From assembly GCA_964349125.1 (NCBI GenBank), contig CAYGFH010000001.1, forward strand, positions 772,801 through 836,800: DNA of 64,000 bases. Reading direction: 5' to 3'. This stretch comes from an uncultured Gammaproteobacteria bacterium. GTDB taxonomy: Bacteria > Patescibacteriota > Microgenomatia > UBA10105 > UBA927. Numbering within the stretch: position 1 is the stretch's first letter; each line of letters begins with the position of its first letter. The position numbers and the translations under genes were made by a program. The notes under the pieces were generated by a model. That model had not been told where the DNA came from and ran no database searches. It saw only the letters and a program-made list of their open reading frames with translations. Shown here piece by piece: positions 36,327-63,337 of the stretch.

Positions 36327-36343
36327 TTTTGCATTTCCATTGT

Positions 36344-38104: not shown

Positions 38105-38115
38105 CAGCACTGCGC

Positions 38116-38642: not shown

Positions 38643-39815
38643 ATGAATATCAGAAATATCAAAATCGTTCTAGGACTGGTAATTGCGCTTTTGCTGGTTG
38701 CTGCATGCGGTCCCACCCCGCCAATCGTAGGGTATGGTCAGATCGTTGCAAAGCGCAACTTGAATTATGACCAGTTCAAGCAGCCGACAAGCGAAAAATA
38801 CACCAATTATTTCTATGTCGGTAGTAACTTTTCTTCCATCCAAAGCGATAACTTGAAGGTGGATCTTACGGCGGCAGTTGTGTCAGATGCTCAAGTGGGT
38901 ATCTATACCACCGGCTTTGACGAAAATCAGGTGCCCATCGTTCAGTATCTGCCGAAGGGCGTTTACGACAAAATCCCGGACGAGTTCGTTCGAGTAGTCG
39001 GCGCCGCGATTGTTGACGGTCAACATATGGGCGTGTACTGCAACTATACGGAAGGGCAAGAGTCTTTCCTCATTTTGCCTCCCGGCGAACATCCATACCC
39101 AGATTATATGGTGACGCACTGGCCCGTGGGAGACCGGATGTACCGCACTGTGAGCGATGGCGCGTTCAATGCGTACAAAGGCGGAGACACAGGGCCCACA
39201 GGACCTGGTGGCGGAGCTGATTTGGTTGAGACCAAGATCGACAAAGCGGATCTCAAGGACACCGATTTGGACCTGACATACACTGTGGACGTCGTGTTCG
39301 CCTACGATATCATCCAGAAAAACGCAAAGGTGCTCTGCGACCTCGGAAGTCCCGAGAAGGCAATCCAGCAAATGGTTGCGACACCGATGCGCGGAAAAGG
39401 TCGCACCATCACAGGACAGTTCGGCATCGATGTGGACACTCCACAAAATATCGAGCTTCTGCAAGCCGCTCTCCGCGATATGCTCATTGCTGAGAATGTT
39501 GGACTTCCTGGTAATTTCAAACACGTATCGCTTCGAAGTTTGGAAATTGGAACCGCTGAATATCAAGCCGCCATTCAACAGAATGCGACTGACCTGGCGA
39601 CTGCTCAAGCGCGTGGCTTGCTTCTCGCTCAACTGCAAAGAAACGCAGAAGATGAGAACACGCTTAAGGAAACCATTGCGGAAGGTTGGGCAACGCAGAT
39701 GGAAGCGCTCGGTTGCACTGACTCATGGCAATGCCTTTGGGTTGTTCTGAATGCAACCGAAAATACGCCGTATTTCAATGGAAATGACCTTCAGCAGCCG
39801 CCTCAGGTTCCATAG
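38643..39815 (+). CDS. lipoprotein with C-terminal SPFH/band-7-like domain
   Basis: Lipobox LLVAAC. C-terminal V.V.FAYDI...LR...G...VSLRSLEI...A...A.A..A pattern typical of SPFH. RBS GGAG 6 nt before ATG 38643; the track uses GTG 38631. Confidence 0.5.
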   Translation: MNIRNIKIVLGLVIALLLVAACGPTPPIVGYGQIVAKRNLNYDQFKQPTSEKYTNYFYVGSNFSSIQSDNLKVDLTAAVVSDAQVGIYTTGFDENQVPIVQYLPKGVYDKIPDEFVRVVGAAIVDGQHMGVYCNYTEGQESFLILPPGEHPYPDYMVTHWPVGDRMYRTVSDGAFNAYKGGDTGPTGPGGGADLVETKIDKADLKDTDLDLTYTVDVVFAYDIIQKNAKVLCDLGSPEKAIQQMVATPMRGKGRTITGQFGIDVDTPQNIELLQAALRDMLIAENVGLPGNFKHVSLRSLEIGTAEYQAAIQQNATDLATAQARGLLLAQLQRNAEDENTLKETIAEGWATQMEALGCTDSWQCLWVVLNATENTPYFNGNDLQQPPQVP

Positions 39816-40365: not shown

Positions 40366-40441
40366 TGGGCCCGAAGTTTACCTGGTTGAACGCTTCATTT
40401 GCAATGAAGAGGTAGTCGGTTCGAGTCCGATCGGGTCCACC
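40366..40441 (+). tRNA. tRNA-Ala (anticodon UGC), CCA encoded
   Basis: Full cloverleaf folded by hand. Acceptor GGGCCCG/CGGGTCC with G3:U70, D-arm GTTT/GAAC, anticodon loop TTTGCAA, T-loop TTCGAGT, A73, CCA. Confidence 0.9.
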
Positions 40442-40689
40442 ACGTAACGTCCGAAAGAGCGGACCATGTGGCAAGCCGCAGACAAGAAAGTTCTCGTTTC
40501 GAGACCAGTTACTTCTCTAAGTAACTGATCTCGCGACAAGAGCGCGTTTTGCTCATTAACATTTTGTAAATGACCTTTATATACATGCAGGTGAAATTCC
40601 TGGTATATGAAGTATTGTTATGTAATTAATAAGTAGTTGCATCGTAAGGGATAATCGATTTGATTCTCTTACATGTAAACCCCGATTTA

Positions 40690-40706
40690 ATCGGGGGAAA
40701 ATTTCG
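40690..40706 (+). other. hairpin CCCCGATTTAATCGGGG in the tRNA-23S spacer (partner-like hairpin at 44110-44126)
   Basis: Near-identical hairpins CCCCGATT(T/A)ATATCGGGG flank the 23S 5' and 3' ends, suggesting processing sites. Confidence 0.5.
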
Positions 40707-40764
40707 TAAAATGAACAATGGCCATCCCGCCGCCGAGGCGAGGATGGATCTTTTGTTCTCTGCA

Positions 40765-44095
<3,331 letters not shown>

Positions 44096-44325
44096 AACAA
44101 AGGTTTGATCCCCGATTATATCGGGGTGAAACTCTGTTCAGATACGAATTTTCTGTGTAGGAGCCATTTTGGTTATCCCTTACGGAGCAATTACTTGAGT
44201 GTGTGATGTCATTTACAAAATTTATATGAAGATCTCTGAAGGTATCCCGTTTCACGGGATAGTTCACAGTATGCTTTTTCTCTAGGAATCGAAAAAGCAA
44301 CTGTTCACTAACCGCTTTAGAGTCT

Positions 44326-44443
44326 TCCAGTCTTTTGAGCGACGTGGTACCACCCGATCCCTTTCCGAACTCGGAAGTGAAACGCGTTAGCGCCGACAAT
44401 ACTTGATTCGCGAGAATCTGGGAATATAGGTCAAGGCTGGGGG
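44326..44443 (+). rRNA. 5S ribosomal RNA
   Basis: CCGAACTCGGAAGTGAAACGCGTTAGCGCCGA loop C/helix III consensus. Helix I CCAGTCTT/AAGGCTGG. Confidence 0.8.
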
Positions 44444-44471
44444 ACTGTAAAGCGGTTTTTTTGTGGATTCG

Positions 44472-44527
44472 TCGCTCTTTTGATTCCGAGAAAAAGAGCG
44501 TACGAGACACGATCCCCGCAGGGGATA
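44472..44527 (+). repeat. two-hairpin module downstream of 5S (direct repeat of 40267-40326)
   Basis: GTCGCTCTTTTGATTCCGAGAAAAAGAGCG...ATCCCCGCAGGGGAT. Confidence 0.6.
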
Positions 44528-44809
44528 CTTTGGTGTATAGCAAATTCCGATTTGTGAATTTAATTGCCGATCAATCCCGCGCGGGCGCTCTTTGCGACGT
44601 GTACGAATAGTACTGAAAAGTCGCAAAAGAAGATGCATTGGAGTGTTTTGAATATCGAAATTCTTTCCTATACACGATTAATAAAACTCGTACACAAATT
44701 TTCTTACTTGTAAGTGTCAAAGAAATACTAGTAGATAATCGTTAATTGCTTAATGCGGTAATAATTGATATAATTACGTCTATTCTCAATGAAAGGTTGG
44801 TTCATATAA

Positions 44810-48657: not shown

Positions 48658-48754
48658 CTCATCTGCGGTGTAAAGCCACGTAACTATTCTGCAATTCCCC
48701 GTACGGATTTCGCTCTGAACATTTCATACACAGCCCTTTTGCCCGTATACATAG

Positions 48755-48774
48755 TTATCCAAAAGTTATCCACA
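48755..48774 (+). promoter_or_regulatory. two tandem DnaA-box-like 9-mers (TTATCCAAA, TTATCCACA) before an AT-rich tract
   Basis: TTATCCACA is a perfect DnaA box consensus. Only two boxes were found. Confidence 0.3.
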
Positions 48775-48837
48775 ATTATTTTTAATATTTATTTGGGTTG
48801 TTGTATCGGTCTATTTAACAATTAAAAAACTATAAGC

Positions 48838-49110
48838 TTGCCGTTTTTACAAAGGAAAAATCCTATGGGACTTGACATGAAGTTTTTCACGTGTTTGAAT
48901 GAATGTATGGTTTATCAACCGCAAGCACACAAGGGTTCTGAAGGCTTCCTAGAAGCGTTCAGTCGTGGTTTAGCGTCCCTCTTGGGTAGAGGGAGAGTAA
49001 TACGGCAGTCACCACTGGCCAAGGAGCGCATACGCTTCGAAAAAGAGGTGCACGAACAGTTCGTGAAGTTGAAAGAAAAGGGCATCAGTATTCCGGTATT
49101 TACGCTGTAA
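48838..49110 (+). CDS. hypothetical small protein
   Basis: RBS AAAGGAAAAA. No recognisable motif. Confidence 0.35.
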   Translation: MPFLQRKNPMGLDMKFFTCLNECMVYQPQAHKGSEGFLEAFSRGLASLLGRGRVIRQSPLAKERIRFEKEVHEQFVKLKEKGISIPVFTL

Positions 49111-49572
49111 GCATCGTTGTCATTCTTGCGAAGGCGAGAATCGGGATACGAACAAGTGTGGGTTTCTTGGGCAGGAATCCAGATTAGTGTTTAACATTCA
49201 GGTTGCATTCAGCAACCTGGATGTAGCATCTGTTTGATTGTAGAAAAAATAATTCAGATCCTCGGGCATGACCCGAGGATGACATGTTTTTGACACCAAT
49301 AAAAAAGCATCATTACCGCTAGCAATTGGGTTTGGGTTTAGCTACGAGTAATAATGCCTTTTATAATTTGGAGATGCTCTAATTGGGCAAAAAGAACATT
49401 TCCTATCTGTTGAATGTATCAGCCCTCTTTTTGCGTGTCAAATTAATATCTGAAGCTAATTTTCTGCGTTTGGATTGTCGCAGAAGCAAAAAAACATCTT
49501 CTCTTTCTTCTGTTCTCGGTTTGTTTTTTTTCCATAATTTTCTCTGACAATATCTTCCTCGGTTTTCGCGTG

Positions 49573-49601
49573 TTGACAACTGTATATATTGGGATTACAA
49601 T
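49573..49601 (+). promoter_or_regulatory. consensus promoter TTGACA-17-TACAAT inside a long noncoding region
   Basis: TTGACA at 49573-49578 and TACAAT at 49596-49601. The 8-bp inverted repeat TTGGGATT/AATCCCAA overlaps the -10. Confidence 0.55.
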
Positions 49602-49952
49602 CCCAACACAGTAATCTAAATACAATGTATTGAGTATGTTATTTGAACGAATGAATGTATTTAGATTGTCATGCATGATATACTTTGTGTGGCACTTGAA
49701 ATATTAGCGTATTGATTTCGAGTGTAAATGGATAGTATGTTGGTCACGTAAAAATCGCGAAGCGAATCACGGGATAAAGCATGCTTGAAACGCTAACGCA
49801 CCGAGTGTCAAGTTTTGTATGGGGGATAGTTTGTTGGGCAGGCGAGCTATCTCCCATAGAGGATTTGACCCGGTGCGTTTTACATTTCGAGCTTGTCTCC
49901 CAAAGAGAGTGCGTTTTTTGTGGCGAAAGTGCCTGTATCAATTGGCACATGA

Positions 49953-51713
49953 CTACTGATGCGTGCGTCCTTCACAGAGGGATTTGAACGAGAAAATAGC
50001 ATACTGTTTATTAGCTGACGTATACGATGGGGTATAGTTTCTCAGAAAATACGCCAACTCTATATCCGGAAGGTTTGTGTCGTTGCGCACATCCTCAACT
50101 GTTACATAGGAGATAGAATACTTTTTCATCAGATCACAGCGTTGTTTTTCATCCCGAGTCTCATACATGATATCCATGATAGGCATGCGATTTTCTTTAT
50201 ATCCTGCGCTCCATGCAAAGTATGGCCATCCCAAAAAGACCGGCCGACCGGCTAGAGAAGCAGGGTGATACAGATAATTGCTGTTTAAAAATACATCACC
50301 CGGACTGGTATGTGTCGCTATCCACGTAGCCGTTGGATGCACATCGGACAGTGTTCCTTTTGCGTCGTTGTATATCACAAAAAAATCAATAATTCCTGTG
50401 AGAGTCAATACTATAATCATGCACCCAGAAGCGAATACTCCCACTGATTGCATAATCACACTTCTCTTTTTTAGGATGGCACTCATGATTGATACAATAA
50501 CATGGGCGCTCAACATATTTCCAAAAATAAGGAAGAAGTTGAAGAATTTATGATTTGCAGATGCCTCTATAGAGAATTTAACAAGATTTGGCAGGATAAA
50601 TAGCGGGATCATCGGTAGCACGAATAGCCGTGATCGTTTTGGAATCAGGAAAAATCCAACAGGAATAAGTATGAGGTGCAGCCCTATATTTTGCCACCAG
50701 TACGAGATCATATGCAGTGTTTTTTGAATGATCGTTGCCTGTTTTTGCAGTTCATTGTGAATGGTATATCCCGGATACCACTCAAGAGGGCTCCCACTGC
50801 CTCTAACCGCGAGAAGCTGTGGGATGATGAGCTCGAGAGCGAGCACACCGGTAAAAAACAGAAATATGCGAAGTGTAGGGAAACAAAAGAAGTATATGCT
50901 CATAAAAACAGCGCAAATTAACAAGGCTGGTTGATGGAAAAAAGGAAACATGCCAAGCGTTATTCCCCAGAATATCGCCCAGGGAATTTGTTTCTTCCAG
51001 TGGATATCGATGAGACGCAGTGTGGTGATGATAAACAGTAACACTATCGCGAAAGCAGCCGCCAGATGGCGCTGATTGGTGTAAATATTTAGGTTCCAAA
51101 ATGCAGTGATCTCACCGGGACCCCACGGGGCGAATGCCGGAAAATCTTTGGCATGCACAATGTCGGTCACGGTATCTATGGTGATCGGGTGCAATGTAAA
51201 AAAGCGGATGAATCCAAATGACCCATTAAACAGGAAAAACACCAGTGCGAGCACAGCGGTAAATTTAGAGTGAGTAAACCTCCATGTTAAGTAATAAATA
51301 CTTAACAAAAGAAGTACAAAACCTGCGATACTGGGTAAATTAAGTGCCCAATCAATTCGCATGCCCAGACGTTCAAAAATGCCTACTATCATATAGAAGA
51401 GAAAGTGATATCTGATAGGCTCTCCGGGGAAAATCGGATACTGCACGTTCAGGTTGAAAAATCGATCCAAATTGTCGCCCATAGAAAATGAGCGTATGAG
51501 CGGGATATGGGCGCCAAAATCGCTCCAGAGCTTGTATGCGATGCGGATATCGTGGGTCTTTGCATCGTACGAAAACGTATGAAACATGAGCCATGATGCA
51601 AAGGTAATGCAAAGGACGATGATGAAGATATCAAAGAAGGGGAGTGTGAGTTTTTTCGATGCCCATATGCGTTTCATGATCTCTATTGTTTCATTGTGTG
51701 CTGTCTGATGCAA
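49953..51713 (-). CDS. polytopic membrane protein, putative GT-C-type glycosyltransferase
   Basis: More than 12 TM helices with a large C-terminal extracytoplasmic domain. Clustered with PMT-like and YYY proteins. Confidence 0.55.
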   Translation of the reverse strand: MHQTAHNETIEIMKRIWASKKLTLPFFDIFIIVLCITFASWLMFHTFSYDAKTHDIRIAYKLWSDFGAHIPLIRSFSMGDNLDRFFNLNVQYPIFPGEPIRYHFLFYMIVGIFERLGMRIDWALNLPSIAGFVLLLLSIYYLTWRFTHSKFTAVLALVFFLFNGSFGFIRFFTLHPITIDTVTDIVHAKDFPAFAPWGPGEITAFWNLNIYTNQRHLAAAFAIVLLFIITTLRLIDIHWKKQIPWAIFWGITLGMFPFFHQPALLICAVFMSIYFFCFPTLRIFLFFTGVLALELIIPQLLAVRGSGSPLEWYPGYTIHNELQKQATIIQKTLHMISYWWQNIGLHLILIPVGFFLIPKRSRLFVLPMIPLFILPNLVKFSIEASANHKFFNFFLIFGNMLSAHVIVSIMSAILKKRSVIMQSVGVFASGCMIIVLTLTGIIDFFVIYNDAKGTLSDVHPTATWIATHTSPGDVFLNSNYLYHPASLAGRPVFLGWPYFAWSAGYKENRMPIMDIMYETRDEKQRCDLMKKYSISYVTVEDVRNDTNLPDIELAYFLRNYTPSYTSANKQYAIFSFKSLCEGRTHQ

Positions 51714-52932
51714 GAATTGCTCCAGCAGCTTTTATTCCTAGCTCAACTGCATAATTCGTGCCTCTATCCCAAGGGACAATACTATCCATATTTGCAAGAA
51801 ACACATTGGGGATAGGTGATTCTAGTGACGGAGCTTTTTTGGAGTAATTAACCTGATGAACAGGTTGAGCATAGGGAGCGGTGAATAGATATGATTTCGT
51901 AAATCGTAAATCGTAAATCGTTAATCGCGATAATTTGGATATATAGGGCATGAACTCTTTTAACAGTTGTTGTTTTGTCATTGTCAAATACCGGTGTCCG
52001 TTCGGCAGATAATTGCCAATATAGGTAATATGGTTGCCTCCATAATGTTTTTTATCCATAAAATTTGTATGGGCGACGATTGCCAGAAATGGAAATGTGC
52101 GGTCGAGAACTGAGAGCCAATATACAGAATCAAGAATCGGTTTTTTCGTTTCCAGAATAAGCACCTGCGCATGAAGATGGGGGATAGTGAGCGATGCTGG
52201 TTTTGCGATACCTGGGAATATTTTTTCAGCAATAGGCGTGGGCGTGGTTACGAGTGTTCTGTCGAATCTTGTATCGATTGACGTTACTGTGGTACCAGTT
52301 TTAATTATTCCACCCCGTTTTTTAATTTCCGAGACAATCGCATCAACGAATGTCTGGAATCCACCATCAAAATACACAAGTGAGGGCGTCCGTTTGTGAA
52401 TACGTGCCCAGAGCCAAGACGCAGCGATTGCGTTATCTAAATCGCCGAACTTACCAGCCATCAGTGGCTCCCAAATTGTCTCCCATGCCCTTAGTCCACC
52501 CCAGCGGATAAAAAATTCTTTTGCAGTAATCCCTTCAAGTGTTTGCCAAAATGGATATAGTTTGCAAAACGCCACGATTAAGCCAGTACGAAGTTTATCA
52601 GAAATAGAAAGGCCATTGAATTTTAATAAGTGCATGGGACTATCAAATTGATGAAACTCGCCACGCCAGTAATTTGATGTGTTTGGACGTTTTGTTATAA
52701 GTTTGTCGCCGATGCCCAATTCATGAGCCAGTGAGAGGATCGCCACATCATTGGTAAACATATGATGATATGCGCCTTCCAAGTGCCACTGCCAATCCTT
52801 CTGCCTGAATCCGTATGCAAGTCCTCCGAGATACGATTCTCGTTCAAACACGGTCACTGTATGTCCGGATTTGGTCAGGGTGTACGCAGCGGTTAGCCCT
52901 GTAATGCCCCCGCCAATGATTGCGATTTTCAT
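51691..52932 (-). CDS. FAD-dependent oxidoreductase (amine-oxidase/PPOX-like, Glf-like not excluded)
   Basis: N-terminal IAIIGGGITGLTAA...VTVFERESYLGG dinucleotide fold. C-terminal GTNYAVELGIKAAG motif. Confidence 0.65.
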   Translation of the reverse strand: MKIAIIGGGITGLTAAYTLTKSGHTVTVFERESYLGGLAYGFRQKDWQWHLEGAYHHMFTNDVAILSLAHELGIGDKLITKRPNTSNYWRGEFHQFDSPMHLLKFNGLSISDKLRTGLIVAFCKLYPFWQTLEGITAKEFFIRWGGLRAWETIWEPLMAGKFGDLDNAIAASWLWARIHKRTPSLVYFDGGFQTFVDAIVSEIKKRGGIIKTGTTVTSIDTRFDRTLVTTPTPIAEKIFPGIAKPASLTIPHLHAQVLILETKKPILDSVYWLSVLDRTFPFLAIVAHTNFMDKKHYGGNHITYIGNYLPNGHRYLTMTKQQLLKEFMPYISKLSRLTIYDLRFTKSYLFTAPYAQPVHQVNYSKKAPSLESPIPNVFLANMDSIVPWDRGTNYAVELGIKAAGAILASDSTQ

Positions 52933-54644
52933 TGGGTTATTATAGCATCGTCTGGTAATGAACTGTTTTCATAAAAAAATCCTAACGTTTCACCAGTCTC
53001 GTTATCAAAATATTCGTATGTAAATGTTGGAAGTGCCTCTCTAATGGTTACAATTTCTTCTTTGCTGGGGTTTATTAGTAAAAAGGGCTGACCTTGATAC
53101 TTATCAAATAGTTGTGATTTTTCGATAGTAGTAAATATGTATTGATTATTTGTGCGAAAGAATAGCTCTTTTCCTAAATGAAAAATTGGATACGCTCCTA
53201 TAAGCACTTCAGTATGTTTGGGTATGACTTCTTGAATTCGATTGGCTAGCTTTGTGCTATAGGGATAGTCTTGAAGATCGTTTAATATCATTTTATTAAG
53301 ATGATAGTTGTTATTAATTATGAATACCATAAATCCAATACCAATGACTAATCGTTTTATCCATATTCGATTAAATGATAGAGCTTTGGAGAGCGCAAAA
53401 AGCCCGAGCGTAATTGTGAAAGCTAGGAGAGGAAACATGACAGCTAACCGATGGAATGCGGGGGGTTGAACAGTTAAAGAATATCCTATTATGACAGCGC
53501 TTATGGTAAACAAAATGTATACAAAGGGTACCTTTTTTTTACAATATTTAACTAATATCCAAAACCCTAACATAAAGAGAATAAAAGTATAAGGTTCCAT
53601 CAAGGCTTGTTTTCCAAAATAATATCCATCTGTTCCGCCAATGCCTGGGAGGAACAACGCAAGTAATGATTGTGATATTTGTACACCAAGAGCTGTACTA
53701 GGTGAGAGGATATTCTCTGCCCCTTGTTGGTATATGCCTTGACTGCTTGTAAATGTGCTTACAGTGCTGATTCGATCATAAAAATATGGAAACACAAATA
53801 TATTGTGAATAATAAATGGAAGTAAAATAATCGCAAACACCGTGTATAAGATTTTAAGTGAATATATGTGGATTTGTGATTTGTTAATTACATACTGGTA
53901 AAAAATGAACAAAATGCTTAGCGGAAGCGTGATATAGGAAGCGGTATAAAAGAGGAAAGATAATCCTAAATAGACGCCAGCTAGAATTGCATGCGCATGG
54001 TGTGCATTGTTCCTGTGGATAAAATGATACAAAAACGCAATGACACAGAGTGCACTGCTGGCAACATGCATATTTAATGTTGACATGTAAAAATTGCTTG
54101 AGGAAAAAATAAAAATAAGTGATGCGATAGCTGCAAAATTTGAGGATATGAGCCGTTTAGAAAGTATATAAAGATAGAATACTATGGCGATATTATACCA
54201 AGCAGTTGAAAATCGAACGGATAACAGTGACGTAGATAATAGTGATAATATCTGTTTTTGAATAAGAAAATATGGGATAGGATATGCTGCTATAGAGCTT
54301 GTTGGGTAGCCATTAAACCAATCAATGTGTTGCATCGCTGGTAGTGTGACAGAGGCATGTGCAAGAACAAATTCATCTCGGTGATAATGGTCAGGTAATG
54401 AATTTACAAACAATGGGATCATGATGATAAGTCCCGAAAACATAAGTACAATTCCCACATCTCTTTTATCTAACGGAAAAAGTGGCTCGATTGATTTTTG
54501 GTTCCAAAAATATGAAATGGTGAGACTTAGTGCGATGAGCCAGGAGAATAGCCCAAACAAATTTACCGATCTTGTGAGTATTTGGGCAATCGTAATTGAC
54601 AGGAGAACAAAGATAAGAAATAGATACACTAGATTCTTTCGCAT
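52929..54644 (-). CDS. GT-C fold membrane glycosyltransferase (PMT/ArnT family 39/83-like)
   Basis: About 14 TM helices. First-loop acidic motif HYHRDEF. ATGA overlap with the upstream gene. Confidence 0.55.
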   Translation of the reverse strand: MRKNLVYLFLIFVLLSITIAQILTRSVNLFGLFSWLIALSLTISYFWNQKSIEPLFPLDKRDVGIVLMFSGLIIMIPLFVNSLPDHYHRDEFVLAHASVTLPAMQHIDWFNGYPTSSIAAYPIPYFLIQKQILSLLSTSLLSVRFSTAWYNIAIVFYLYILSKRLISSNFAAIASLIFIFSSSNFYMSTLNMHVASSALCVIAFLYHFIHRNNAHHAHAILAGVYLGLSFLFYTASYITLPLSILFIFYQYVINKSQIHIYSLKILYTVFAIILLPFIIHNIFVFPYFYDRISTVSTFTSSQGIYQQGAENILSPSTALGVQISQSLLALFLPGIGGTDGYYFGKQALMEPYTFILFMLGFWILVKYCKKKVPFVYILFTISAVIIGYSLTVQPPAFHRLAVMFPLLAFTITLGLFALSKALSFNRIWIKRLVIGIGFMVFIINNNYHLNKMILNDLQDYPYSTKLANRIQEVIPKHTEVLIGAYPIFHLGKELFFRTNNQYIFTTIEKSQLFDKYQGQPFLLINPSKEEIVTIREALPTFTYEYFDNETGETLGFFYENSSLPDDAIITQ

Positions 54645-54672
54645 ATGAAATACTAATTATTCTACTGGATAA

Positions 54673-56982
54673 TTGATCAGCGTTCGGTATAATCATTTCA
54701 TGGGAACTGATTTTTGGATAGTTGTCAAATGGTGGGTGGCTTTATTTCTCATTGGTTCAGTGTCCTTTCCGCTCACAAAAAAACTGTTTTCCTCATGGTA
54801 TGACCGCGGATATATGTTTACCAAGGCCGTTGGTATGGCTTTTGTCACATATATTGTGTACATCGCAGCAATGGCGCGAGTATTGCCGTTCACCTTCGAA
54901 TCAATAGTATTGGCGATGATTACTGTATTTTTCTTTGGATTACTCGTGCATGTGTTTACAAGTAGGGAAGTGGAGGGGAGAAGGGATACGCGGATGGGTA
55001 CATTGTTGAAATATCCAAAAGCATTCATGCACCATGCTCCCCAAAAAATGCGCTTGGTGATGATTCTGATACTTGAAGAACTCTTTTTTTTCGGGCTGCT
55101 ACTTTTTTGGTCGTGGGTAAAAGGGCATGAGCCCTCGATCCATGGACTGGAAAAATTTATGGATTTTGGATTCATGCAAACAATTCTCAACAGCAGATAT
55201 TTCCCGGCGCCGGATATGTGGTATGCAGGATATCCGATAAATTACTATTACTTCGGTCATACGGTTGTTGCGGTATTGACAAAATTTTCCAATATTTCAC
55301 TCATCTACACGTTTAATCTTATGCTCGCTACACTGTTTGCGCTATGCGTCACACAGAGCTTTAGTATCGGTGTACATATTCTGCAGTGGGGGATGCCAAA
55401 GCTTCGCATTGGCATGGTGATTGCTGGCGCTATCCTCATAGCATTCCTCGTATCTCTCGGGGGAAACATGCAAACCATTTATGCGTTTACCAAAGGGTAT
55501 ACAGGTGAAAACGTACAACCATTTTGGCATTTGCTGTGGACTCCCGGAGAATTTATAGGAAAATTGCCGGAGGGATTGGAGCGGTACTGGTATGCGAATG
55601 CCACGAGATTCATACCCTATACAATTCATGAATTTCCAAGCTACTCGTTTGTTGTATCCGATGTGCATGGGCATGTCATGAGCATACCATTCGTGCTTCT
55701 TGCAATCGCGTTGCTTTTGGCACTATTTTTATCTGATGGAAAATCACTCAACACGCAGAGATCTGATGCACAGAGCCTCCGGTATGTGTTGTATGGGCTG
55801 CTCGTATCTATCCTTCTGATGACAAATGCTCTCGATGGGCCGATTTATTTAGGGTTATTCCTCGTTCTGTATAGCGTATTCCACTGGAAATATATACGCG
55901 CATTTGGCAAACACTGGAAGTATATTGTGTTGACTGCAGGATCTGTATGTATTGCGGCAGTGCTGGGAAGTATTCCCTTTATGAGTAAATTTTCTTCGTT
56001 TGTCTCAGGTATTGCGCTCAATTGTCCGCCCGCGTTTTTGGCGAATCAAAAAATAGGCCCCCTCCTTTTTGAAGAAATTGAAAAGTGTCAGCGATCTCCT
56101 GTCTGGATGATGTGGTTACTGTGGGGATTTTTCATCTATTCAGGCATATTCTTATTTGCATGGTATGCCAAGCATCATATGCAAAAGAAAGCAGAGGAAA
56201 AACCTCACACATTGGTACTGGTATTTGCAGTGTTTTTCGTTATTTCCATTGCCCTTATCATTTTTCCTGAGATTTTTTACTTCAAGGATATTTATCCCCA
56301 ACACTTCAGAAGTAACACCATGTTTAAGCTGGGGTATCAGGCATTTATCATGTTTTCAATTATTTCAGGATACTCGATCATGTATGCGGTGAACGCGATA
56401 CGAGAGAAACTCACACGTAAGAATAGATATGTCCTATGGGTATTCTTATTACTGTTACTCCCTCAATTATTTCTTGTGTCTATTTACCCGATATTCAGCG
56501 TTCGTTCATACTTTAACAGTTTGCTGACCTATAAAGGCCTCGATGGAATTCAGTGGATTGCGGAGCAGTATCCTGATGATTATGCAGGGATTTTATGGCT
56601 TAAAGGTCAATTGAGTATGGAGATTCCCACCGCAGATTCACTCCCAGTTATTGTAGAGGCAGATGGGGATAGCTACACCGATCATGCACGGTATAGTGCA
56701 TTTACAGGCGTACCGACTGTGATCGGTTGGCCTGTACATGAATGGTTGTGGCGTGGTTCTTACGATGTCGTTGCTCCTCGGCGGGAGGAAGTGCGTGTTA
56801 TTTACGAGTCTGATAGTTATGAGGAAACACGGGAAATTCTTCAGAAGTATGGGGTTAAATACATAGTGGTCGGAGGGATGGAACGTGAAAAATTTACTCA
56901 ACTCAATATCACAAAGCTTGAAGATATGGGCAGACCTGCGTTCACAATCGGTGAGTTAACGATCTATGAGATCACTGACTGA
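54673..56982 (+). CDS. DUF2298 (Chlor_Arch_YYY) family membrane protein
   Basis: Diagnostic GYPINYYYFGH motif. About 20 TM helices. Large C-terminal soluble domain. Confidence 0.7.
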   Translation: MISVRYNHFMGTDFWIVVKWWVALFLIGSVSFPLTKKLFSSWYDRGYMFTKAVGMAFVTYIVYIAAMARVLPFTFESIVLAMITVFFFGLLVHVFTSREVEGRRDTRMGTLLKYPKAFMHHAPQKMRLVMILILEELFFFGLLLFWSWVKGHEPSIHGLEKFMDFGFMQTILNSRYFPAPDMWYAGYPINYYYFGHTVVAVLTKFSNISLIYTFNLMLATLFALCVTQSFSIGVHILQWGMPKLRIGMVIAGAILIAFLVSLGGNMQTIYAFTKGYTGENVQPFWHLLWTPGEFIGKLPEGLERYWYANATRFIPYTIHEFPSYSFVVSDVHGHVMSIPFVLLAIALLLALFLSDGKSLNTQRSDAQSLRYVLYGLLVSILLMTNALDGPIYLGLFLVLYSVFHWKYIRAFGKHWKYIVLTAGSVCIAAVLGSIPFMSKFSSFVSGIALNCPPAFLANQKIGPLLFEEIEKCQRSPVWMMWLLWGFFIYSGIFLFAWYAKHHMQKKAEEKPHTLVLVFAVFFVISIALIIFPEIFYFKDIYPQHFRSNTMFKLGYQAFIMFSIISGYSIMYAVNAIREKLTRKNRYVLWVFLLLLLPQLFLVSIYPIFSVRSYFNSLLTYKGLDGIQWIAEQYPDDYAGILWLKGQLSMEIPTADSLPVIVEADGDSYTDHARYSAFTGVPTVIGWPVHEWLWRGSYDVVAPRREEVRVIYESDSYEETREILQKYGVKYIVVGGMEREKFTQLNITKLEDMGRPAFTIGELTIYEITD

Positions 56983-57065
56983 TGCTCCCTTTGTCCTTGA
57001 CAAGTGTGCATAAATACCATTAACTAGAAGATATACAGCACTTATCATACAGGGCTTATTTTTTT

Positions 57066-58157
57066 ATGAAGCGAGACTCATACCGATTTTTAGCGTACAT
57101 ACTCATTATTGCTGTATGTTCTTTGAGTATGTTTCCGTTTTCTTCGATTGTTCAAGCAGGCACATTGACTCCAGCGAAGGTAACTATTTCGGATTCACGG
57201 GCAGGGAATGCCTCCACGACCTATGATTTTGCATTCACTACGTCAGTAACTACATCCATAAAACAACTGAATGTTGTGTTTTGTACCACGGCATCAGGAG
57301 CATGTTCGACACCGACCGGGATAGATACGACAGGAGCAACAAGAGCGAGTGATAACGTTGCAGGAACAGGGAGAACTGATGATTTCACAGGAAACGGAAC
57401 ACTATCAACGGTGATCACGACTCCCGCATCACAAGCCACACAGGCCGTAACTGTATCCTACACAGGGATAACCAATCCGACGACCACCAACACTACATTT
57501 TTTGCACGCATAACCACATACTCTGACACCGGGTCAACGGTGATTGATACGGCTTCCGTCGCGTTTGCTATTCTCACAAGTACGTCAATCGCTGTAAGTG
57601 CCTCTGTTGATTCCACATTTACGTTTTCGGTTGCGGCAGCCAATTCAGGAAGCGTGAATGGTGCATCGATTGATATAACAACTTCTACTGCAAACACCAT
57701 TCCATTCGGCACGCTCTCGTCAGGAGTGCCGAAAGTAGCAGCTCATGATCTCTCTGTGGTATCAAACGCATTAGGGGGATACACTATTACCGTAAAAGCG
57801 TTAGCAGATCCACCGCTTGTTGATGCCTCTAATAATATTGATAAGTTTAGCGGTACTAATGACACTCCAACGACCTGGTCGTCACCGGCCGGATCATCGG
57901 CGAATGTAAACACAGGGTTTTTCGGATACACGACGAACGATGCATCACTTGGGACCGGAACAGCAACCCGATTTACGGGCTCCGGAGGCAATAAATGGGC
58001 CGGGACAACAACGTCACCGCTTGAAGTGGCATATAGTGCCGTAGGGGTATCGTCTGCGGAAGTAACTCGTGTCGGATGGCAAGCTGAAGTAAACGGACTC
58101 CAGCCAGCCGGTGCATATACAGGCACTGTCGTGTTGGTGGCAACACCAACGTATTGA
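57066..58157 (+). CDS. secreted Thr/Ser-rich surface protein, WxL-like C-terminal domain (paralog 1)
   Basis: Signal/TM, T/S-rich region, C-terminal GYTTND...RFT...GW.AEV...AGAYTGTVVLVATPTY block shared by three paralogs. Resemblance to WxL is tentative. Confidence 0.5.
   Translation: MKRDSYRFLAYILIIAVCSLSMFPFSSIVQAGTLTPAKVTISDSRAGNASTTYDFAFTTSVTTSIKQLNVVFCTTASGACSTPTGIDTTGATRASDNVAGTGRTDDFTGNGTLSTVITTPASQATQAVTVSYTGITNPTTTNTTFFARITTYSDTGSTVIDTASVAFAILTSTSIAVSASVDSTFTFSVAAANSGSVNGASIDITTSTANTIPFGTLSSGVPKVAAHDLSVVSNALGGYTITVKALADPPLVDASNNIDKFSGTNDTPTTWSSPAGSSANVNTGFFGYTTNDASLGTGTATRFTGSGGNKWAGTTTSPLEVAYSAVGVSSAEVTRVGWQAEVNGLQPAGAYTGTVVLVATPTY
57150..57460 (+). repeat. 311-bp segment identical between paralog 1 and paralog 2 (other copy 59213-59523)
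   Basis: Nucleotide identity as read by eye across the N-terminal coding halves. Antisense ORFs 57221-57439 and 59284-59502 have identical translations. Confidence 0.85.
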
Positions 58158-59083
58158 TCTTTATGAAACACTTTGTGTATACGTATCGTAATCTCCTGAC
58201 TTTTTTACTGTTGCTGGTGTCCGGAGGATTTTTCGTTGTCCGTTTGGGGATCGCACAGAATGCGGCAAGTTCGCAAACATTGGAAATTTCCCCTCCCAGC
58301 CAGGAAATAAAAGTTGATCCCGGTCAAACAGTAAAGATAAAGGCAAAGATCCGCAATCGTAGCGGAGAATCGCTCTCTATACTCGCACGAATAGAGGATT
58401 TTACTGCGTCAGGGGAGGGCGGACAGGTAGCACTTATAGAAAAAGGGCCGTATGCAATTTCTTCCTGGACTATCATTGATCAGCCGGCATTTACATTAAA
58501 GTCTGGAGAAACAAAAGAGATTGTGGCAACTGCATCTGTTCCTGTCGGTCTTGCCGGCGGGCGATATGGATCATTTGTTTTTTCTGCCGGAGGAGGGCAG
58601 GCAGGGGCTGGCACTGCTGCTGTATCGCAGGAAGTCGCCTCATTGTTTTTACTTCGTATTTCCGGACCAGTTTCAGAGGTGTTAACCGCTGATGCGTTTA
58701 CTATGCCATCGTTTGTCGAATTTGGCCCGGTGCCTATGACCGTAAAGTTCTCCAATACTGGAAACGTACATGTCAGGCCAAACGGACTAATTAATGTCCG
58801 AAATATGTTCGGAAAAACTGCTGCGGACGTGCTGTTTAAAGGGGAAAATGTATTTCCAGGAGCATCCCGCTCTCAAACAGTTACTCTCGATAAAACATGG
58901 CTATTCGGGCCGTATACAGCTCAGGCAGTGTTAACATATGGAAGTAAAAATGAATCTCTGACGATTACCTCTACCTTTTTTGCATTCCCACTGCGGATTG
59001 CAGTGGTATTGGGTATCGTTCTTGGTGTATTGTATATGATGAGACGCCGGTTGAAAAAAGCACTCAAGGCACTCGTGGGATAA
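58154..59083 (+). CDS. DUF916/DUF3324-like cell-surface protein with C-terminal membrane anchor (CscA-like)
   Basis: LEISPPSQEIKVDPGQTVKIKAKIRNRSGESL...IEDF block resembles DUF916. C-terminal TM followed by MMRRRLKKALK. Confidence 0.5.
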   Translation: MIFMKHFVYTYRNLLTFLLLLVSGGFFVVRLGIAQNAASSQTLEISPPSQEIKVDPGQTVKIKAKIRNRSGESLSILARIEDFTASGEGGQVALIEKGPYAISSWTIIDQPAFTLKSGETKEIVATASVPVGLAGGRYGSFVFSAGGGQAGAGTAAVSQEVASLFLLRISGPVSEVLTADAFTMPSFVEFGPVPMTVKFSNTGNVHVRPNGLINVRNMFGKTAADVLFKGENVFPGASRSQTVTLDKTWLFGPYTAQAVLTYGSKNESLTITSTFFAFPLRIAVVLGIVLGVLYMMRRRLKKALKALVG

Positions 59084-59092: not shown

Positions 59093-60220
59093 ATGAAGTA
59101 TTCTGCCAAAACTATTCATAAAAAAATCCACCATACTAAGAAAGTAAGCGCTATTGGTGTGCTTATTGTGTTGCTTGTGAGCGTACCCTTATTCGCTCAG
59201 CTATCCACGAAAGTTCAAGCAGGCACATTGACTCCAGCGAAGGTAACTATTTCGGATTCACGGGCAGGGAATGCCTCCACGACCTATGATTTTGCATTCA
59301 CTACGTCAGTAACTACATCCATAAAACAACTGAATGTTGTGTTTTGTACCACGGCATCAGGAGCATGTTCGACACCGACCGGGATAGATACGACAGGAGC
59401 AACAAGAGCGAGTGATAACGTTGCAGGAACAGGGAGAACTGATGATTTCACAGGAAACGGAACACTATCAACGGTGATCACGACTCCCGCATCACAAGCC
59501 ACACAGGCCGTAACTGTATCCTATACAGGTATTACAAATCCTACGACGACAGATTCTACCTTTTTTGCCCGCGTGACAACATATTCTGACACCGGGTCAA
59601 CGGTGATTGATTCAGCGTCTGTCGCATTTGCCATTTTAACCACAACATCTATAGCCGTTACCGCATCGGTAGCATCAACGTTTACGTTTTCTGTTGCTGC
59701 GGTGACAACAGGATTGGTCAACGGGGCGACAATCGACGTGACAAGTACCACCGCAAACACTATTCCATTTGGAACACTGTCATCTGCAACACCTAAAATA
59801 GCTTCTCATGATCTTACAGTCACGACAAATGCAGCGAATGGATACACTGTCACGGTCAAAGCGGCTGCAGATCCGCCACTTGTTGACAGTACGAATAATA
59901 TAGATAAATTCAGTGGTACGAACGCAACACCCACAACTTGGTCGTCACCAGCGGGTTCTAGTGCGAGCGTAAACACTGGATTTTTTGGATACACGACAAA
60001 CGATGCAACGCTTGGTACCGGGACAGCCGATCGGTTTACGAGTTCAGGAGGTAATAAATGGTCAGGTACAACCACATCGCCGCTTGAAGTGGCGTATAGT
60101 GCGACAGGTATCGGCTCTTCTGAAGTTACGCGGATAGGATGGCAAGCCGAGGTGAATGGATTGCAGCCGGCAGGAGCCTACACTGGCACAGTCGTTTTAG
60201 TCGCGACGCCGACTTATTAA
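59093..60220 (+). CDS. secreted Thr/Ser-rich surface protein, WxL-like (paralog 2)
   Basis: Same architecture and C-terminal block as 57066-58157. First 311 bp of the mature region are identical. Confidence 0.5.
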   Translation: MKYSAKTIHKKIHHTKKVSAIGVLIVLLVSVPLFAQLSTKVQAGTLTPAKVTISDSRAGNASTTYDFAFTTSVTTSIKQLNVVFCTTASGACSTPTGIDTTGATRASDNVAGTGRTDDFTGNGTLSTVITTPASQATQAVTVSYTGITNPTTTDSTFFARVTTYSDTGSTVIDSASVAFAILTTTSIAVTASVASTFTFSVAAVTTGLVNGATIDVTSTTANTIPFGTLSSATPKIASHDLTVTTNAANGYTVTVKAAADPPLVDSTNNIDKFSGTNATPTTWSSPAGSSASVNTGFFGYTTNDATLGTGTADRFTSSGGNKWSGTTTSPLEVAYSATGIGSSEVTRIGWQAEVNGLQPAGAYTGTVVLVATPTY

Positions 60221-60238: not shown

Positions 60239-60661
60239 ATGAATATGCCGCAACGTGCGCTCTATATACTCTTTGGCATCGCAATCGGATATGTGTTTCA
60301 TGATTTGGCTTATGACAGCAGTCAAAGCATTCTCAAAAGAATACATTTTATATCCAATAAATCCACGTCACAAACGGTACTCGGTGATGTGTCTGCCGAT
60401 CAGTTCATCACGTCTGTTGTGTACACCGGTAATCGATTTGAGCCTAGGACTGTACGAGTGCGGAAAGGAAACTATGTGGTTATTACTAACAGGAGTAACA
60501 CATCGCTCATGTGGTTGGTATCAGACATGCCTGGCGTTATGACGACACGCGGATATGCCGAAGGTGAACAATTCCAGTTCACATCCGGGCAGGTAGGGTC
60601 GTTCACTGTGTCTAATAAGCTGCTTCCTCAGTCAACACTTCGCATTACCGTGGATGAGTAA
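60239..60661 (+). CDS. membrane-anchored beta-rich hypothetical protein
   Basis: N-terminal TM. No recognised motif. Confidence 0.45.
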   Translation: MNMPQRALYILFGIAIGYVFHDLAYDSSQSILKRIHFISNKSTSQTVLGDVSADQFITSVVYTGNRFEPRTVRVRKGNYVVITNRSNTSLMWLVSDMPGVMTTRGYAEGEQFQFTSGQVGSFTVSNKLLPQSTLRITVDE

Positions 60662-60890: not shown

Positions 60891-62246
60891 CTATGCGTCT
60901 TTATTATATTTATGAATGATCCGAAGTATTGTTCTATCTGAGACAGAAAGCTGTAACTGTTCTTTTATTTGCTTTGTCGTTAGATTCTTTTTTGAATAGA
61001 GCATACGTATGTGTCGAATGGTCTCCATGGATACAGATGACGTTCTGGTGTGGTGTGGGCGGGTTGATTTACGTGTTAGTGTTGCGTATTCAGGTAAAGA
61101 TACTGCCCTGTCTCTCCATCTATAAATTGTGGATCGATGTATGCCCAATAGAGTGGCCGTCTTTATCACCGAGCCATTCTGAGATTTCAACGTATCTATA
61201 ATCTGTTGGGGGGTCACACGAGACAAACCCTCAACAGATGACACCGCTCGGTTCTCTGGTGCTATTTGCACTGCACTCAAATCTTCAACAGGGGCGCTGT
61301 TGGATATACGTTCTTCTATAGAAGAATTTGATGATATTAATAGCTTGAATGCCTTGTATATATTTCGGCGTTTACGGATTATCCAAAGTGCCATACCTAT
61401 GAATAGAAGAGAGGAAATAAATATTCTATATGGGAAGATAACGAGGAGTGTAGTTTTAGTAATAGTTTCGCCATTTTCTATTCGAGATTTTATTGTTGCC
61501 TTATAAATGCCCCATTTGCTGTTTTGTATTGTAAATACGGTCTTCCAGGATCTGGATTTACCAGGTAATATTGTTTTCTCATCCAGTTCTGCTGCATCTG
61601 ATTGTCCCCACAACGGAGTTATTGTGAGCGTTGGTTTCGTTGAAAAATAATGAAGTGAATTATTCGTTATTCGCACAGTGCTAGTAATAGGCCCATGTTC
61701 GTATATCAGTTTTTCAAATTGAAACTGGGATATTACAGCCTTGTTCTTCTGAGATTCCTGTATGCCTATGTTTGCAAGCGTGACGACTCCTATTTTTGAC
61801 CCTATTGTTCCGTTGGGGTAGAGAGGCGTAAAGTATATGATCGCATAATACCCTCCTATAGGGACAGTGGAGGGAATAGCAATTTTGACGAAGAATTCGT
61901 GTGATTGACGGGCTGGAATAATGACATCAGGCTCCTCAATGGTAATCCATCGGGCAAGCGGCGAAATCTCAATAGTCGGATCAGGTGTGAACCCGGATAT
62001 CTCATCGGATGAGTCAAATCCCTCTATTGTTGCGCGTAACGGCATAGGTGCGTCTGTAAGGTTCTCAATAGAGATAGGGTAGAGATGCTTTGCACCAGGT
62101 TGCAGTTGTATTTTTAATATGACGGGTGACACGCGAAGTGATGAGGAAATAAAATTAAGCCCGGAAGCCTGCACAAGAGAGATCGGCCTGAGAAGTAGGC
62201 TCGCCAGCAACATGATAAAAAATGATGTATTTAGTATTATTTTCAT
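60891..62246 (-). CDS. DUF916-like extracellular domain + TM + cytoplasmic tandem HTH tail
   Basis: Signal peptide. LRVSPVILKIQLQPGAKHLYPISIENL (DUF916-like). TM FISSLLFIGMALWIIRKRR. C-terminal HTHs IHRSTIYRW and SDRTILRIIHKY. Confidence 0.55.
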   Translation of the reverse strand: MKIILNTSFFIMLLASLLLRPISLVQASGLNFISSSLRVSPVILKIQLQPGAKHLYPISIENLTDAPMPLRATIEGFDSSDEISGFTPDPTIEISPLARWITIEEPDVIIPARQSHEFFVKIAIPSTVPIGGYYAIIYFTPLYPNGTIGSKIGVVTLANIGIQESQKNKAVISQFQFEKLIYEHGPITSTVRITNNSLHYFSTKPTLTITPLWGQSDAAELDEKTILPGKSRSWKTVFTIQNSKWGIYKATIKSRIENGETITKTTLLVIFPYRIFISSLLFIGMALWIIRKRRNIYKAFKLLISSNSSIEERISNSAPVEDLSAVQIAPENRAVSSVEGLSRVTPQQIIDTLKSQNGSVIKTATLLGIHRSTIYRWRDRAVSLPEYATLTRKSTRPHHTRTSSVSMETIRHIRMLYSKKNLTTKQIKEQLQLSVSDRTILRIIHKYNKDA

Positions 62247-62260
62247 ATAGTTTTCACTAT

Positions 62261-63337
62261 TTAATATATGGGAACAACAACGTAGATAACGGTGTTGGTG
62301 TATGCTCCTGCCGGTGTGGTGGCGTCTCCTGTGACGCGATATGAAATATTGAATTGTTCGTTGACAACCGGATTGTTTTCTACAATATCTGTGTGATCCG
62401 CGACGGGGTCACCGGGAGTTGCTGTTGAAAACCCAGCATACTTCGGTCCGCCAAGCGTAAACCTATCGGCTGCGCCCCCGGCGAGTGACGTATCGTTGGT
62501 GGTGTATCCGAACCCAGTACCAGTCCATGCTGTGGGTGATCCGTTTGTCCCTGCGTAATCGACGATAGTATTGGATTCAAACGTGAGTGGGCCAGTTTCG
62601 CGGCCATACACTGTATACCCGTTGTATGCATTTGTGGAAGTTGTAAGTGTCGTAGTTTTACTGCTGTCGGTATAAGAATTTGAAGAGTCCAATGTGTTAA
62701 ATGTGAGTGTTTCGGAGGAGATACCAAACGTTAATGAAGGGACAGATGTTGTGGCGCTTGATGTCGGTCCAAATCGAGATTCAGTAAAGTTGCCCCATTT
62801 ACTCTTGACCTTTATTTTATATGTTGTATTTTGTTTTAATCCTCTGACAAACTCACCTGTCGCGCCGCCCCAGTTGCCATATGTTTGCCAATCTTCCTGT
62901 CCAAGAGTTATGTCTATCGTGTTGTCGTCCTGAACAAACCGTGTCGTTGTAAAGTCGTCATCTGAAATAGCGATAGCGTACAGTGCATCTGCAGGTCCGG
63001 CACCATTTGTGATAATAAATTTTAATCTATCGTAATTTATTGCCGGGTTAGTGAATATGGGAGCTGGAGGGGTATTTGCCTGTAACGTTTCTATAAGTCC
63101 GCCGTTTACTGAATAATTTGTTGATGCAGGATTTCCAAATTCCAATCCTCCTACATAACCAAACAGAGAGAAATTGTCCGAGCTGCCTGAGTCAATACCT
63201 CCTGAACCGAAGTCATACTGAGTCAGTTCAAAGTTCGTGCTTGTTGGTCCGGCAATGACTTTCGTTGAAGTAATCAAAAAAAACGATACGAACAGACTGC
63301 ACGTAATTGAGAATCCAAAAATATTTTTCATACGCAT
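62261..63337 (-). CDS. secreted surface protein, WxL-like C-terminal block (paralog 3)
   Basis: TAWTGTGFGYTTNDTSLAGGAADRFT and AGAYTNTVIYVVVPIY align with the other two paralogs. Confidence 0.5.
   Translation of the reverse strand: MRMKNIFGFSITCSLFVSFFLITSTKVIAGPTSTNFELTQYDFGSGGIDSGSSDNFSLFGYVGGLEFGNPASTNYSVNGGLIETLQANTPPAPIFTNPAINYDRLKFIITNGAGPADALYAIAISDDDFTTTRFVQDDNTIDITLGQEDWQTYGNWGGATGEFVRGLKQNTTYKIKVKSKWGNFTESRFGPTSSATTSVPSLTFGISSETLTFNTLDSSNSYTDSSKTTTLTTSTNAYNGYTVYGRETGPLTFESNTIVDYAGTNGSPTAWTGTGFGYTTNDTSLAGGAADRFTLGGPKYAGFSTATPGDPVADHTDIVENNPVVNEQFNISYRVTGDATTPAGAYTNTVIYVVVPIY

Follow-up and report, generated by a model that had tools for sequence, protein, structure and literature searches.

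Protein O-mannosyltransferases of the Pmt type (GT39) act on Ser/Thr/Pro-rich secreted proteins in actinobacteria and fungi, and TMTC and TMEM260 are further examples of such enzymes. In the mycobacterial arabinan machinery, the flavoenzyme pair DprE1/DprE2 makes the decaprenyl-phospho-arabinose used by EmbA/B/C and AftA-D, which are membrane glycosyltransferases of fold class C (GT-C). To our knowledge, every characterised GT-C enzyme takes its sugar from a polyprenyl-phosphate-linked donor at the outer face of the membrane. Here we describe a module of three predicted GT-C enzymes and one flavoprotein, encoded by four neighbouring genes (g1 to g4) in a 64-kb stretch of contig CAYGFH010000001.1 (64,000 nt, positions 772,801 to 836,800; hereafter the window) and directly adjoining a putative Pam-type pilus locus. 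The host is a bacterium of the candidate phyla radiation (CPR), Gottesmanbacteria type. Pam pili were described in the CPR parasite Ca. Mycosynbacter amalyticus, for which two filaments were solved and the pilins PamA and PamB were defined (Troman et al. 2026, bioRxiv 10.64898/2026.03.03.709456). The same study presents PamC and PamD as chaperones that carry a signal peptide and are anchored in the membrane by their C-terminus, and reports an unidentified modification on PamA Ser356 for which it names no enzyme, with no mention of glycosylation or of a transferase; Microgenomatia are given as a main host class of the system and the organism studied is a member of the Saccharimonadia (Troman et al. 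2026).

All four open reading frames (ORFs) lie exactly where the earlier note on this DNA had placed them. On the minus strand, g3 (52929-54644, 571 aa), g2 (51691-52932, 413 aa) and g1 (49953-51713, 586 aa) form a single operon, and g4 (54673-56982, plus strand, 769 aa) is divergent from it. Public gene calls start g1 at ATG 51677 (574 aa) and g4 at ATG 54700 (760 aa), and both are probably the true starts. The g3 stop and the g2 start overlap by 4 nt, which suggests translational coupling, and 13 nt separate g2 from g1 counted from its ATG 51677. Within the 55-nt divergent spacer between this operon and g4 (54645-54699), a promoter-like element TGGATA-16-TATAAT (within 54666-54699) stops 6 nt before the g4 ATG, so that a leaderless or near-leaderless g4 mRNA would be implied; it is a consensus match without statistical support, and our consensus scan for promoters and terminators returned results no better than shuffled sequence. 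As for the host, the names attached to g1 homologues are all those of Gottesmanbacteria or Patescibacteria, and the 23S rRNA gene in the window is split by a group I intron.

The fold assignment starts from g1 and g3. The AlphaFold (AF2) model of g1 has a predicted local distance difference test score (pLDDT) of 92.8 and, in a Foldseek search of the PDB, its best 20 matches are all GT-C enzymes: STT3 (1e-7), DPY19, AglB, AftA (template modelling score, TM, 0.54), PglB, ArnT and AftD. Similarly, the AlphaFold model of g3 (pLDDT 93.1) has GT-C enzymes as its best 40 matches, among them AglB (6e-9), PglB, ArnT (TM 0.58/0.60), ALG12, STT3, AftA and Emb. TM-scores for both proteins are in the moderate range that 10-13% identity leads one to expect (0.4-0.6), and the lists are uniformly GT-C. 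Each protein has about 10-11 hydrophobic segments followed by a C-terminal alpha/beta domain. On these models, g1 and g3 are GT-C-fold membrane glycosyltransferases, and the fold searches side with the earlier note in finding GT-C enzymes rather than transporters. That note had also called the membrane proteins giant and polytopic; polytopic they are, but 571-769 aa is a normal size among GT-C enzymes.

The most recognisable of the three is g4, which scores above the curated cutoffs of both PF10060 (DUF2298; 4.8e-91, 306.6 bits, cutoff 27.8) and TIGR03662 Chlor_Arch_YYY (7.4e-138, 461.3 bits, cutoff 300.25). The DUF2298 motif NYYYFGH noticed earlier is present at residues 190-196, and N-Y-Y-Y-F-G-H is invariant across 21 diverse DUF2298 members. 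In the g4 segment E-K-F-M-D-F-G, E151 and K152 are invariant, the Asp not strictly so. By both family models, g4 is a full-length DUF2298/Chlor_Arch_YYY member. Literature searches on the function of DUF2298, PF10060 or TIGR03662 found nothing, and PDB sequence and profile searches with g1, g3 and g4 returned nothing useful, there being no solved structure for DUF2298 or for the g1 family. Two high-GC metagenome loci (L100:3570-10939 and L128:382-7751) each hold two adjoining DUF2298-type ORFs, one of about 1580 aa; presumably these correspond to the double-YYY class of the TIGR03662 family description.

Neither Pfam nor NCBIfam gives any match to g1, whose more than 1490 homologues are all unnamed proteins from Gottesmanbacteria and CPR. 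A profile comparison with hhalign, however, aligns the g1 family with the 21 diverse DUF2298 members at 98.75% probability (E 1.5e-16, 482 columns), pairing S-D-F-G with M-D-F-G and P-I-R-Y-H-F with P-I-N-Y-Y-Y. The S-D-F of the g1 first loop is invariant in 57 sequences and lies in helix 48-55, after transmembrane segment 14-34. A C-terminal extracytoplasmic domain is common to g1 and g4 even by plain BLASTP (3e-6), and the g1 motif reads R-Y-H-F-L-F-Y, not YYY. Since g1 lies outside the Pfam and NCBIfam models and is related at the profile level only, it is best regarded as belonging to a sister family (a remote, short, divergent paralogue) of DUF2298 rather than as a member. Given the GT-C fold predicted for g1 and its homology to DUF2298, the assignment passes to the latter, and g4 would likewise be a GT-C enzyme. 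One relative among the Gottesmanbacteria has a gene for a 96-aa GIY-YIG nuclease (L149:9727-10017) between the flavoprotein gene and g1, where it overlaps the g1 start.

For g3, the earlier proposal of a PMT/ArnT-type enzyme holds loosely. The protein itself scores below the gathering cutoff of PMT_2 (PF13231; 22.5 bits against 26.1, E 1.4e-4), whereas 49 of the 69 members of its family match PMT_2 at E<=1e-3 (best 4e-14), so that the family is probably a divergent PMT_2 subfamily. PF02366 (PMT) and MIR domains have no match in g1, g3 or g4, and g3 is thus not a GT39 Pmt. The first-loop acidic motif HYHRDEF occupies g3 residues 86-92, between helix 60-80 and helix 89-99; its D90 does not vary among 69 sequences, nor does E91 among the six closest. 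Fold and family evidence together predict a GT-C-fold glycosyltransferase of divergent PMT_2-like type. Relatives are numerous in an exhaustive HMMER search (3104 matches, 144 below 1e-30); word-indexed protein search performs poorly here, with 5 matches for the single sequence and 7 for a profile.

The fourth component, g2, carries the FAD motif IIGGGITG at residues 5-12 and has no hydrophobic segment, which makes it a soluble cytoplasmic protein. It matches Amino_oxidase (PF01593) over its full length at 4e-27 and NF005560 (PRK07233, "hypothetical protein") over residues 1-409 at 1.8e-111 (373 bits, cutoff 252), in line with its earlier description as an amine-oxidase-like FAD protein; all 19 of the g2 orthologues collected match PRK07233 as well. 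Among named relatives, HpnE, phytoene desaturases and protoporphyrinogen oxidase come next, and the nearest solved structure is Pyrococcus PF1083 (3nrn, 3e-15), itself uncharacterised. From these matches, g2 is an FAD-dependent PRK07233-family oxidoreductase of the amine-oxidase/phytoene-desaturase/protoporphyrinogen-oxidase superfamily. A flavin polyprenol reductase like g2 did not come up in literature searches, nor did any report of protein glycosylation in CPR bacteria.

That these genes belong together is seen in their conservation. Through g4 we recovered 21 species-level loci from a genome collection, with more loci through g1 homologues, and annotated them with our own profiles; the scan used N-terminal peptide patterns of close relatives and so covers Gottesmanbacteria-type loci, with Chloroflexi and Archaea outside its reach. 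In 20 of the 21, g2 is no more than 10 kb away from g4, usually divergent and adjoining, and g1 is present in 14. The g3 orthologue, defined by a match to the g3-family profile, occurs in five. In one of the closest relatives (L019), the g3 slot is filled by a non-orthologous 500-aa PMT_2-like gene; elsewhere a PMT_2 gene follows g1 (L005), or the homologous cluster includes a PF02366 gene (L148). The RBG_13_45_10 genome has in a row a DUF2298 gene, a true PMT (PF02366), the flavoprotein, g1 and a PMT_2 gene. Thus g4 and g2, often with g1, are conserved as a unit, and the g3 position is a variable slot in which non-orthologous PMT or PMT_2 genes are swapped. A degenerate-motif metagenome scan added 116 further DUF2298 loci, which have no taxonomic labels and of which nine extend 3 kb or more to either side; because flanks are this short, missing neighbours there are weak evidence. 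None of the 12 high-GC (non-CPR-like) DUF2298 loci in this set has g2.

A second, lower-GC and CPR-like lineage in the metagenome set links the module to a different surface protein. Its g4 is about 42% identical to that of the window and its genes are co-directional. In all six loci for which that sequence is available, one family of surface proteins of about 450 aa lies directly upstream of g2, with a 4-nt overlap between the two genes in L074; the family also adjoins g4 in L058 and a g3-like gene in L098, giving eight loci in total. Members include L074:605-1975, L060:11860-12978, L051:5289-6176, L043:3-872, L084:3-674, L120:3-725 and L058:3866-5239. The proteins consist, in order, of a signal/anchor segment, fn3, CarboxypepD_reg and Big_13 domains, a Pro/Thr/Ser-rich stalk and an LPxTG-like motif (LAPTG, LPPTG), after which come a hydrophobic segment and then a basic tail, and by this architecture they look like sortase-type wall-anchored proteins. 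Pro/Thr-rich stalks are classic targets of Pmt-type O-mannosylation in Actinobacteria. The linkage to the module is kept despite 30-45% sequence divergence of the surface protein, and it argues for a protein acceptor more strongly than pilin adjacency does.

In the window, the genes directly downstream of g4 encode the Ser/Thr-rich secreted proteins that the earlier note had seen there. Pilin 1 (57066-58157, plus strand) starts 84 nt after g4, with an equal arrangement in the two closest relatives (L007 and L019, g4 66-69% identical), and is followed by a chaperone candidate (58154-59083, plus), a second, paralogous Ser/Thr-rich pilin (pilin 2, 59093-60220, plus) and a 140-aa protein (60239-60661, plus) with a weak nitrosocyanin-like match (0.0055), syntenic in L007 and L019. 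Ser and Thr together make up 31% of pilin 1 and 32% of pilin 2, against 11-16% of the neighbouring proteins, and the N-termini of both pilins are signal-peptide-like. A second, convergent part of the locus (60891-63337, minus), also syntenic in L007 and L019, comprises a 451-aa protein (60891-62246), chaperone-like at its N-terminal end and with an HTH region at its C-terminal end, together with a third pilin-like gene (62261-63337) that matches NF058579 PamT at 4.4e-8 and NF058581 at 3.8e-7, both below cutoff. The three paralogues match NF058581 (CPR_Pam_pilin_C) over its whole 148-position model at E 1e-7 to 1e-8 (pilin 1 8.9e-8, pilin 2 1.8e-8) with scores below cutoff: pilin scores reach 30-35 bits against NCBIfam cutoffs of 55 or 240, and pilin 1 has 32 bits against 55. 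These end-to-end matches suggest that the Ser/Thr-rich neighbours are distant homologues of CPR Pam pilins.

Between the pilin genes, the 309-aa product of 58154-59083 carries a signal peptide and, C-terminally, a membrane anchor, and from this architecture and its position it may be a PamC/PamD-like pilus chaperone. It has no significant family match in Pfam or NCBIfam; a faint similarity (E 0.036) to WxLIP_PGBD, the WxL-interacting protein domain found in Firmicutes surface-protein clusters, hints at a possible distant relation of Pam chaperones to WxL-cluster proteins. Pilin 1 and pilin 2 are 84% identical as proteins and share 300 nt at 98% (57134-57433 and 59197-59496; residues about 30-150 identical), probably through gene conversion. 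Public short-read contigs of the window organism (L001-L003) stop at this repeat. The 451-aa protein is weakly chaperone-like in its N-terminal part (44-47 bits) and matches HTH_23, HTH_29 and IS481/IS630-type transposase N-terminal domains at residues 348-446; we take it for an unusual fusion of chaperone and regulator or for a transposase fragment that was domesticated.

Our preferred reading, held tentatively, is that the module O-glycosylates surface proteins, with the Pam-type pilins as local substrates, and O-glycosylation of the adjoining Ser/Thr-rich proteins is plausible in itself. As characterised GT-C enzymes behave uniformly with respect to donor and side of action, g1, g3 and g4 would draw on polyprenyl-phosphate-linked sugars on the external side of the membrane and pass them to an extracytoplasmic acceptor, preferably Ser/Thr of secreted surface proteins and locally of the Pam-type pilins. 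The acidic residues of the first loop (D90/E91 of g3 and the S-D-F aspartate of g1) would act in catalysis. Of the g4/g1 pair and the exchangeable PMT_2 enzyme, one would prime the glycan and the others would lengthen or vary it. On the cytoplasmic side, g2 would tailor a lipophilic intermediate, be it the polyprenyl carrier or the sugar donor in its lipid-linked form, since its relatives act on isoprenoids or tetrapyrroles; it would thereby be functionally DprE1-like with another fold, a guess that forms the weakest step of the scheme. A protein acceptor is favoured by the linkage to genes for Ser/Thr(/Pro)-rich surface proteins in two lineages, and by the Ser-linked modification published on PamA.

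We also speculate, at a level that we would call unlikely though worth stating, that DUF2298-type GT-C enzymes and the PRK07233 flavoprotein constitute a previously unrecognised CPR O-glycosylation system for Pam pilins and Pro/Thr-stalk proteins and are the source of the Ser density on PamA. Here g4 and g1 might form a heteromer (compare Pmt1-Pmt2 and EmbA-EmbB), and g2 might make a CPR-specific lipid-linked donor or modified carrier.

Several observations weigh against surface-protein O-glycosylation with pilin substrates. The pilins adjoin the module in only two of the 21 species loci, both among the closest relatives; in most other species the neighbours of the module are conserved housekeeping genes (RadA, PIN/TRAM, Rho), and none of them encodes a surface protein. 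In the spacer between g4 and pilin 1 (56983-57065, plus), a -35-like TTGACA (56997-57002) is invariant in the alignment of the window with L007 and L019, which suggests a separate promoter, and the pilin operon probably has its own; the scan showed no hairpin resembling a terminator between g4 and the first pilin gene. Because the adjacency is confined to the window clade and comes with this promoter element, it counts as a single evolutionary event and is weak evidence for a functional link. Ser/Thr-rich composition is common in unglycosylated adhesins, and the Ser and Thr residues of the pilins are spread through predicted beta-rich domains instead of being gathered in a disordered linker. 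Sequence features of the module identify no acceptor, and the role given to g2 is purely inferred. With three to five GT-C enzymes per cluster, the arrangement is closer to polymer assembly (Emb/Aft, the ALG series) than to a single-enzyme Pmt. No genes for a polyprenyl-phosphate GT2, a flippase or sugar-nucleotide synthesis were seen among the 39 other ORFs scanned in the window, which is about 8% of the genome; the sole related gene encodes a cytoplasmic GT4 (8554-9732). Finally, the published account of the surroundings of the pam operon (ATP synthase, CorB, MFS, MazE) mentions no glycosyltransferase (Troman et al. 2026, bioRxiv 10.64898/2026.03.03.709456).

A rival reading is that the module builds or decorates a non-protein envelope glycopolymer (lipoglycan, wall polysaccharide or a polymer resembling teichoic acid), and that the pilins came to lie beside it by a lineage-specific accident. 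Several GT-C enzymes would then add sugars sequentially on the external side of the membrane, with g2 readying the lipid-linked donor (compare DprE1 with Emb/Aft, ArnT and YfhO). We take this to be a real possibility, albeit one that we would not bet on. The number and variable complement of GT-C genes, the housekeeping context and the promoter-like element before the pilins all fit it, as do the fold matches to AftA (TM 0.54), Emb, AftD, ArnT and ALG9/12 that stand beside those to protein-modifying enzymes. On the other hand, the repeated, overlapping linkage of g2 to a Pro/Thr-rich sortase-type protein is hard to explain in this way, and neither the cluster nor the window showed genes for polymer export, a ligase or nucleotide sugars. 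The best-ranked folds are moreover those of peptide-modifying enzymes (STT3, AglB, PglB, DPY19), although the ranking of folds does not settle what the acceptor is.

A protein acceptor other than the pilins is improbable by our estimate: the module would glycosylate surface proteins generally, S-layer or sortase-anchored proteins encoded elsewhere, and not the adjoining Pam pilins. This is consistent with a module conserved across species in which the pilins adjoin it only twice and stand behind their own promoter-like element, and with the fact that the protein linked to it in the other lineage is a stalked wall protein and no pilin. The Ser-linked modification of PamA speaks for the pilins, however, and they are the most Ser/Thr-rich proteins of the window.

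We consider it very improbable that g2 is a UDP-galactopyranose mutase (UGM)-like enzyme supplying a furanose donor, a role that the earlier note had left open and that we dropped. UGM and g2 fall into one broad class of flavoprotein folds, and the UGM chains 1i8t and 4dsg give a weak match (4e-5); yet these cover only residues 5-108 and 2-54 of g2, the Rossmann/FAD part, with no match to the GLF domain in Pfam, whereas Amino_oxidase and PRK07233 span the full protein, and GT-C enzymes take lipid-linked and not UDP-linked donors. Scarcely credible is the suggestion that the membrane proteins are transporters or scaffolds without glycosyltransferase activity, for which one could cite the missing family annotation of g1 and weak LeuT/MFS folds far down its list, because those matches have E values of at least 0.05, TM of about 0.1 and probabilities below 0.15 against 1.00 for GT-C, and there is no variation in the acidic first-loop residues that are typical of GT-C catalysis.

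The hypothesis obtained here, that the module enzymes glycosylate CPR surface proteins, is directly testable. CPR bacteria are ultrasmall, mostly uncultured epibionts whose surface structures mediate attachment to the host, and a genome of about 0.84 Mb that spends about 7 kb on three GT-C enzymes and a flavoprotein suggests that extracytoplasmic glycosylation matters to the bacterium that carries it. DUF2298 gains a fold-level assignment by homology together with a conserved flavoprotein partner, and a large sister family (g1, more than 1490 members) without prior annotation is brought to light. Even if the acceptor were a wall polymer, the cluster would still provide a first handle on envelope glycopolymer synthesis in CPR.

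The remainder of the window holds further features. The 23S rRNA gene (40759-44096), whose group I intron (43453-43722) is typical of CPR, is accompanied by 5S rRNA (44326-44442) and tRNA-Ala (40367-44042); directly upstream of the latter no 16S gene lies within the window. An ORF overlapping the rRNA and 5S genes (43707-44543, minus) is probably spurious. Between a PIN/TRAM gene and g1, 1.3 kb (48658-49952) contain no ORF longer than 90 aa and show three consecutive plus-strand hairpin/terminator-like sites (49159-49280); an Rfam search of this interval found nothing credible (best E 0.43). Notably for so small a genome, genes similar to the large and small subunits of NiFe-hydrogenase, a DsbA-like thioredoxin beside VKOR, and a copper cluster occupy 19131-20955 (minus), 21038-22173 (minus) and 25188-30397 (plus). 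The copper cluster encodes a cupredoxin, DUF305, a fusion of DsbD_2 with cupredoxin and an HMA-bearing Cu-type P-type ATPase. ORFs of 262, 282, 466, 394, 338 and 197 aa (34444-39815, plus; 22218-23836, minus) have no Pfam match; the 338-aa one (22218-23234, minus), with 27% Ser+Thr and a signal-like N-terminus, is a candidate surface protein.

Among the known systems close to the module is DUF2298/TIGR03662, of which g4 is a full member with the YYY motif and which has no characterised member or solved structure. Its pairing with PRK07233 was met in low-GC CPR-type loci only and in none of the 12 high-GC DUF2298 loci. The g1 protein has a similar first-loop region, a P-I-x-Y-x-F motif and the C-terminal extracytoplasmic domain, but is about 200 residues shorter and falls below the reach of both family models. 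The likeness to the Pam system lies in pilins that match the C-terminal model end to end (E about 1e-8), one of them also PamT, and in the anchored protein between them; scores in the window are sub-cutoff, and the published organism is a Saccharimonadia member for whose pam surroundings no glycosyltransferases are mentioned.

With Pmt, TMTC and TMEM260, the module would share the GT-C fold, the first-loop D-E pair (g3 D90/E91), a presumed polyprenyl-phosphate sugar donor and the genomic linkage to Ser/Thr(/Pro)-rich exported proteins. In contrast to Pmt, g3 has no PMT or MIR domain and a sub-cutoff PMT_2 match, Pmt folds rank 30th or lower in its list, and at least three GT-C enzymes and a flavoprotein stand here in place of one enzyme. 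The best structural neighbours of g1 and g3 are STT3, AglB, PglB and DPY19 (E 1e-7 to 6e-9, probability 1.00), which have a like layout of transmembrane core and C-terminal extracytoplasmic domain; identity is 10-13% at TM 0.4-0.5, with no PDB chain matched at the sequence level, and family scans of the window enzymes gave no STT3 match or WWDYG-type motif. The mycobacterial arabinan machinery resembles the module in combining a flavin oxidoreductase with several GT-C enzymes, and AftA, Emb and AftD are significant fold matches. It differs in that DprE1 has a VAO-type fold and g2 is of the amine-oxidase/phytoene-desaturase type, that the acceptor there is a polysaccharide, and that DprE2, the ribosyl-phosphate transferase and other pathway genes are not present here. 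The module would work like a Pmt/TMTC-type system or like a DprE1 and Emb/Aft machinery, and we do not assign it to either; what is new is the enzyme set with its flavoprotein partner for GT-C envelope glycosylation, in a poorly known phylum.

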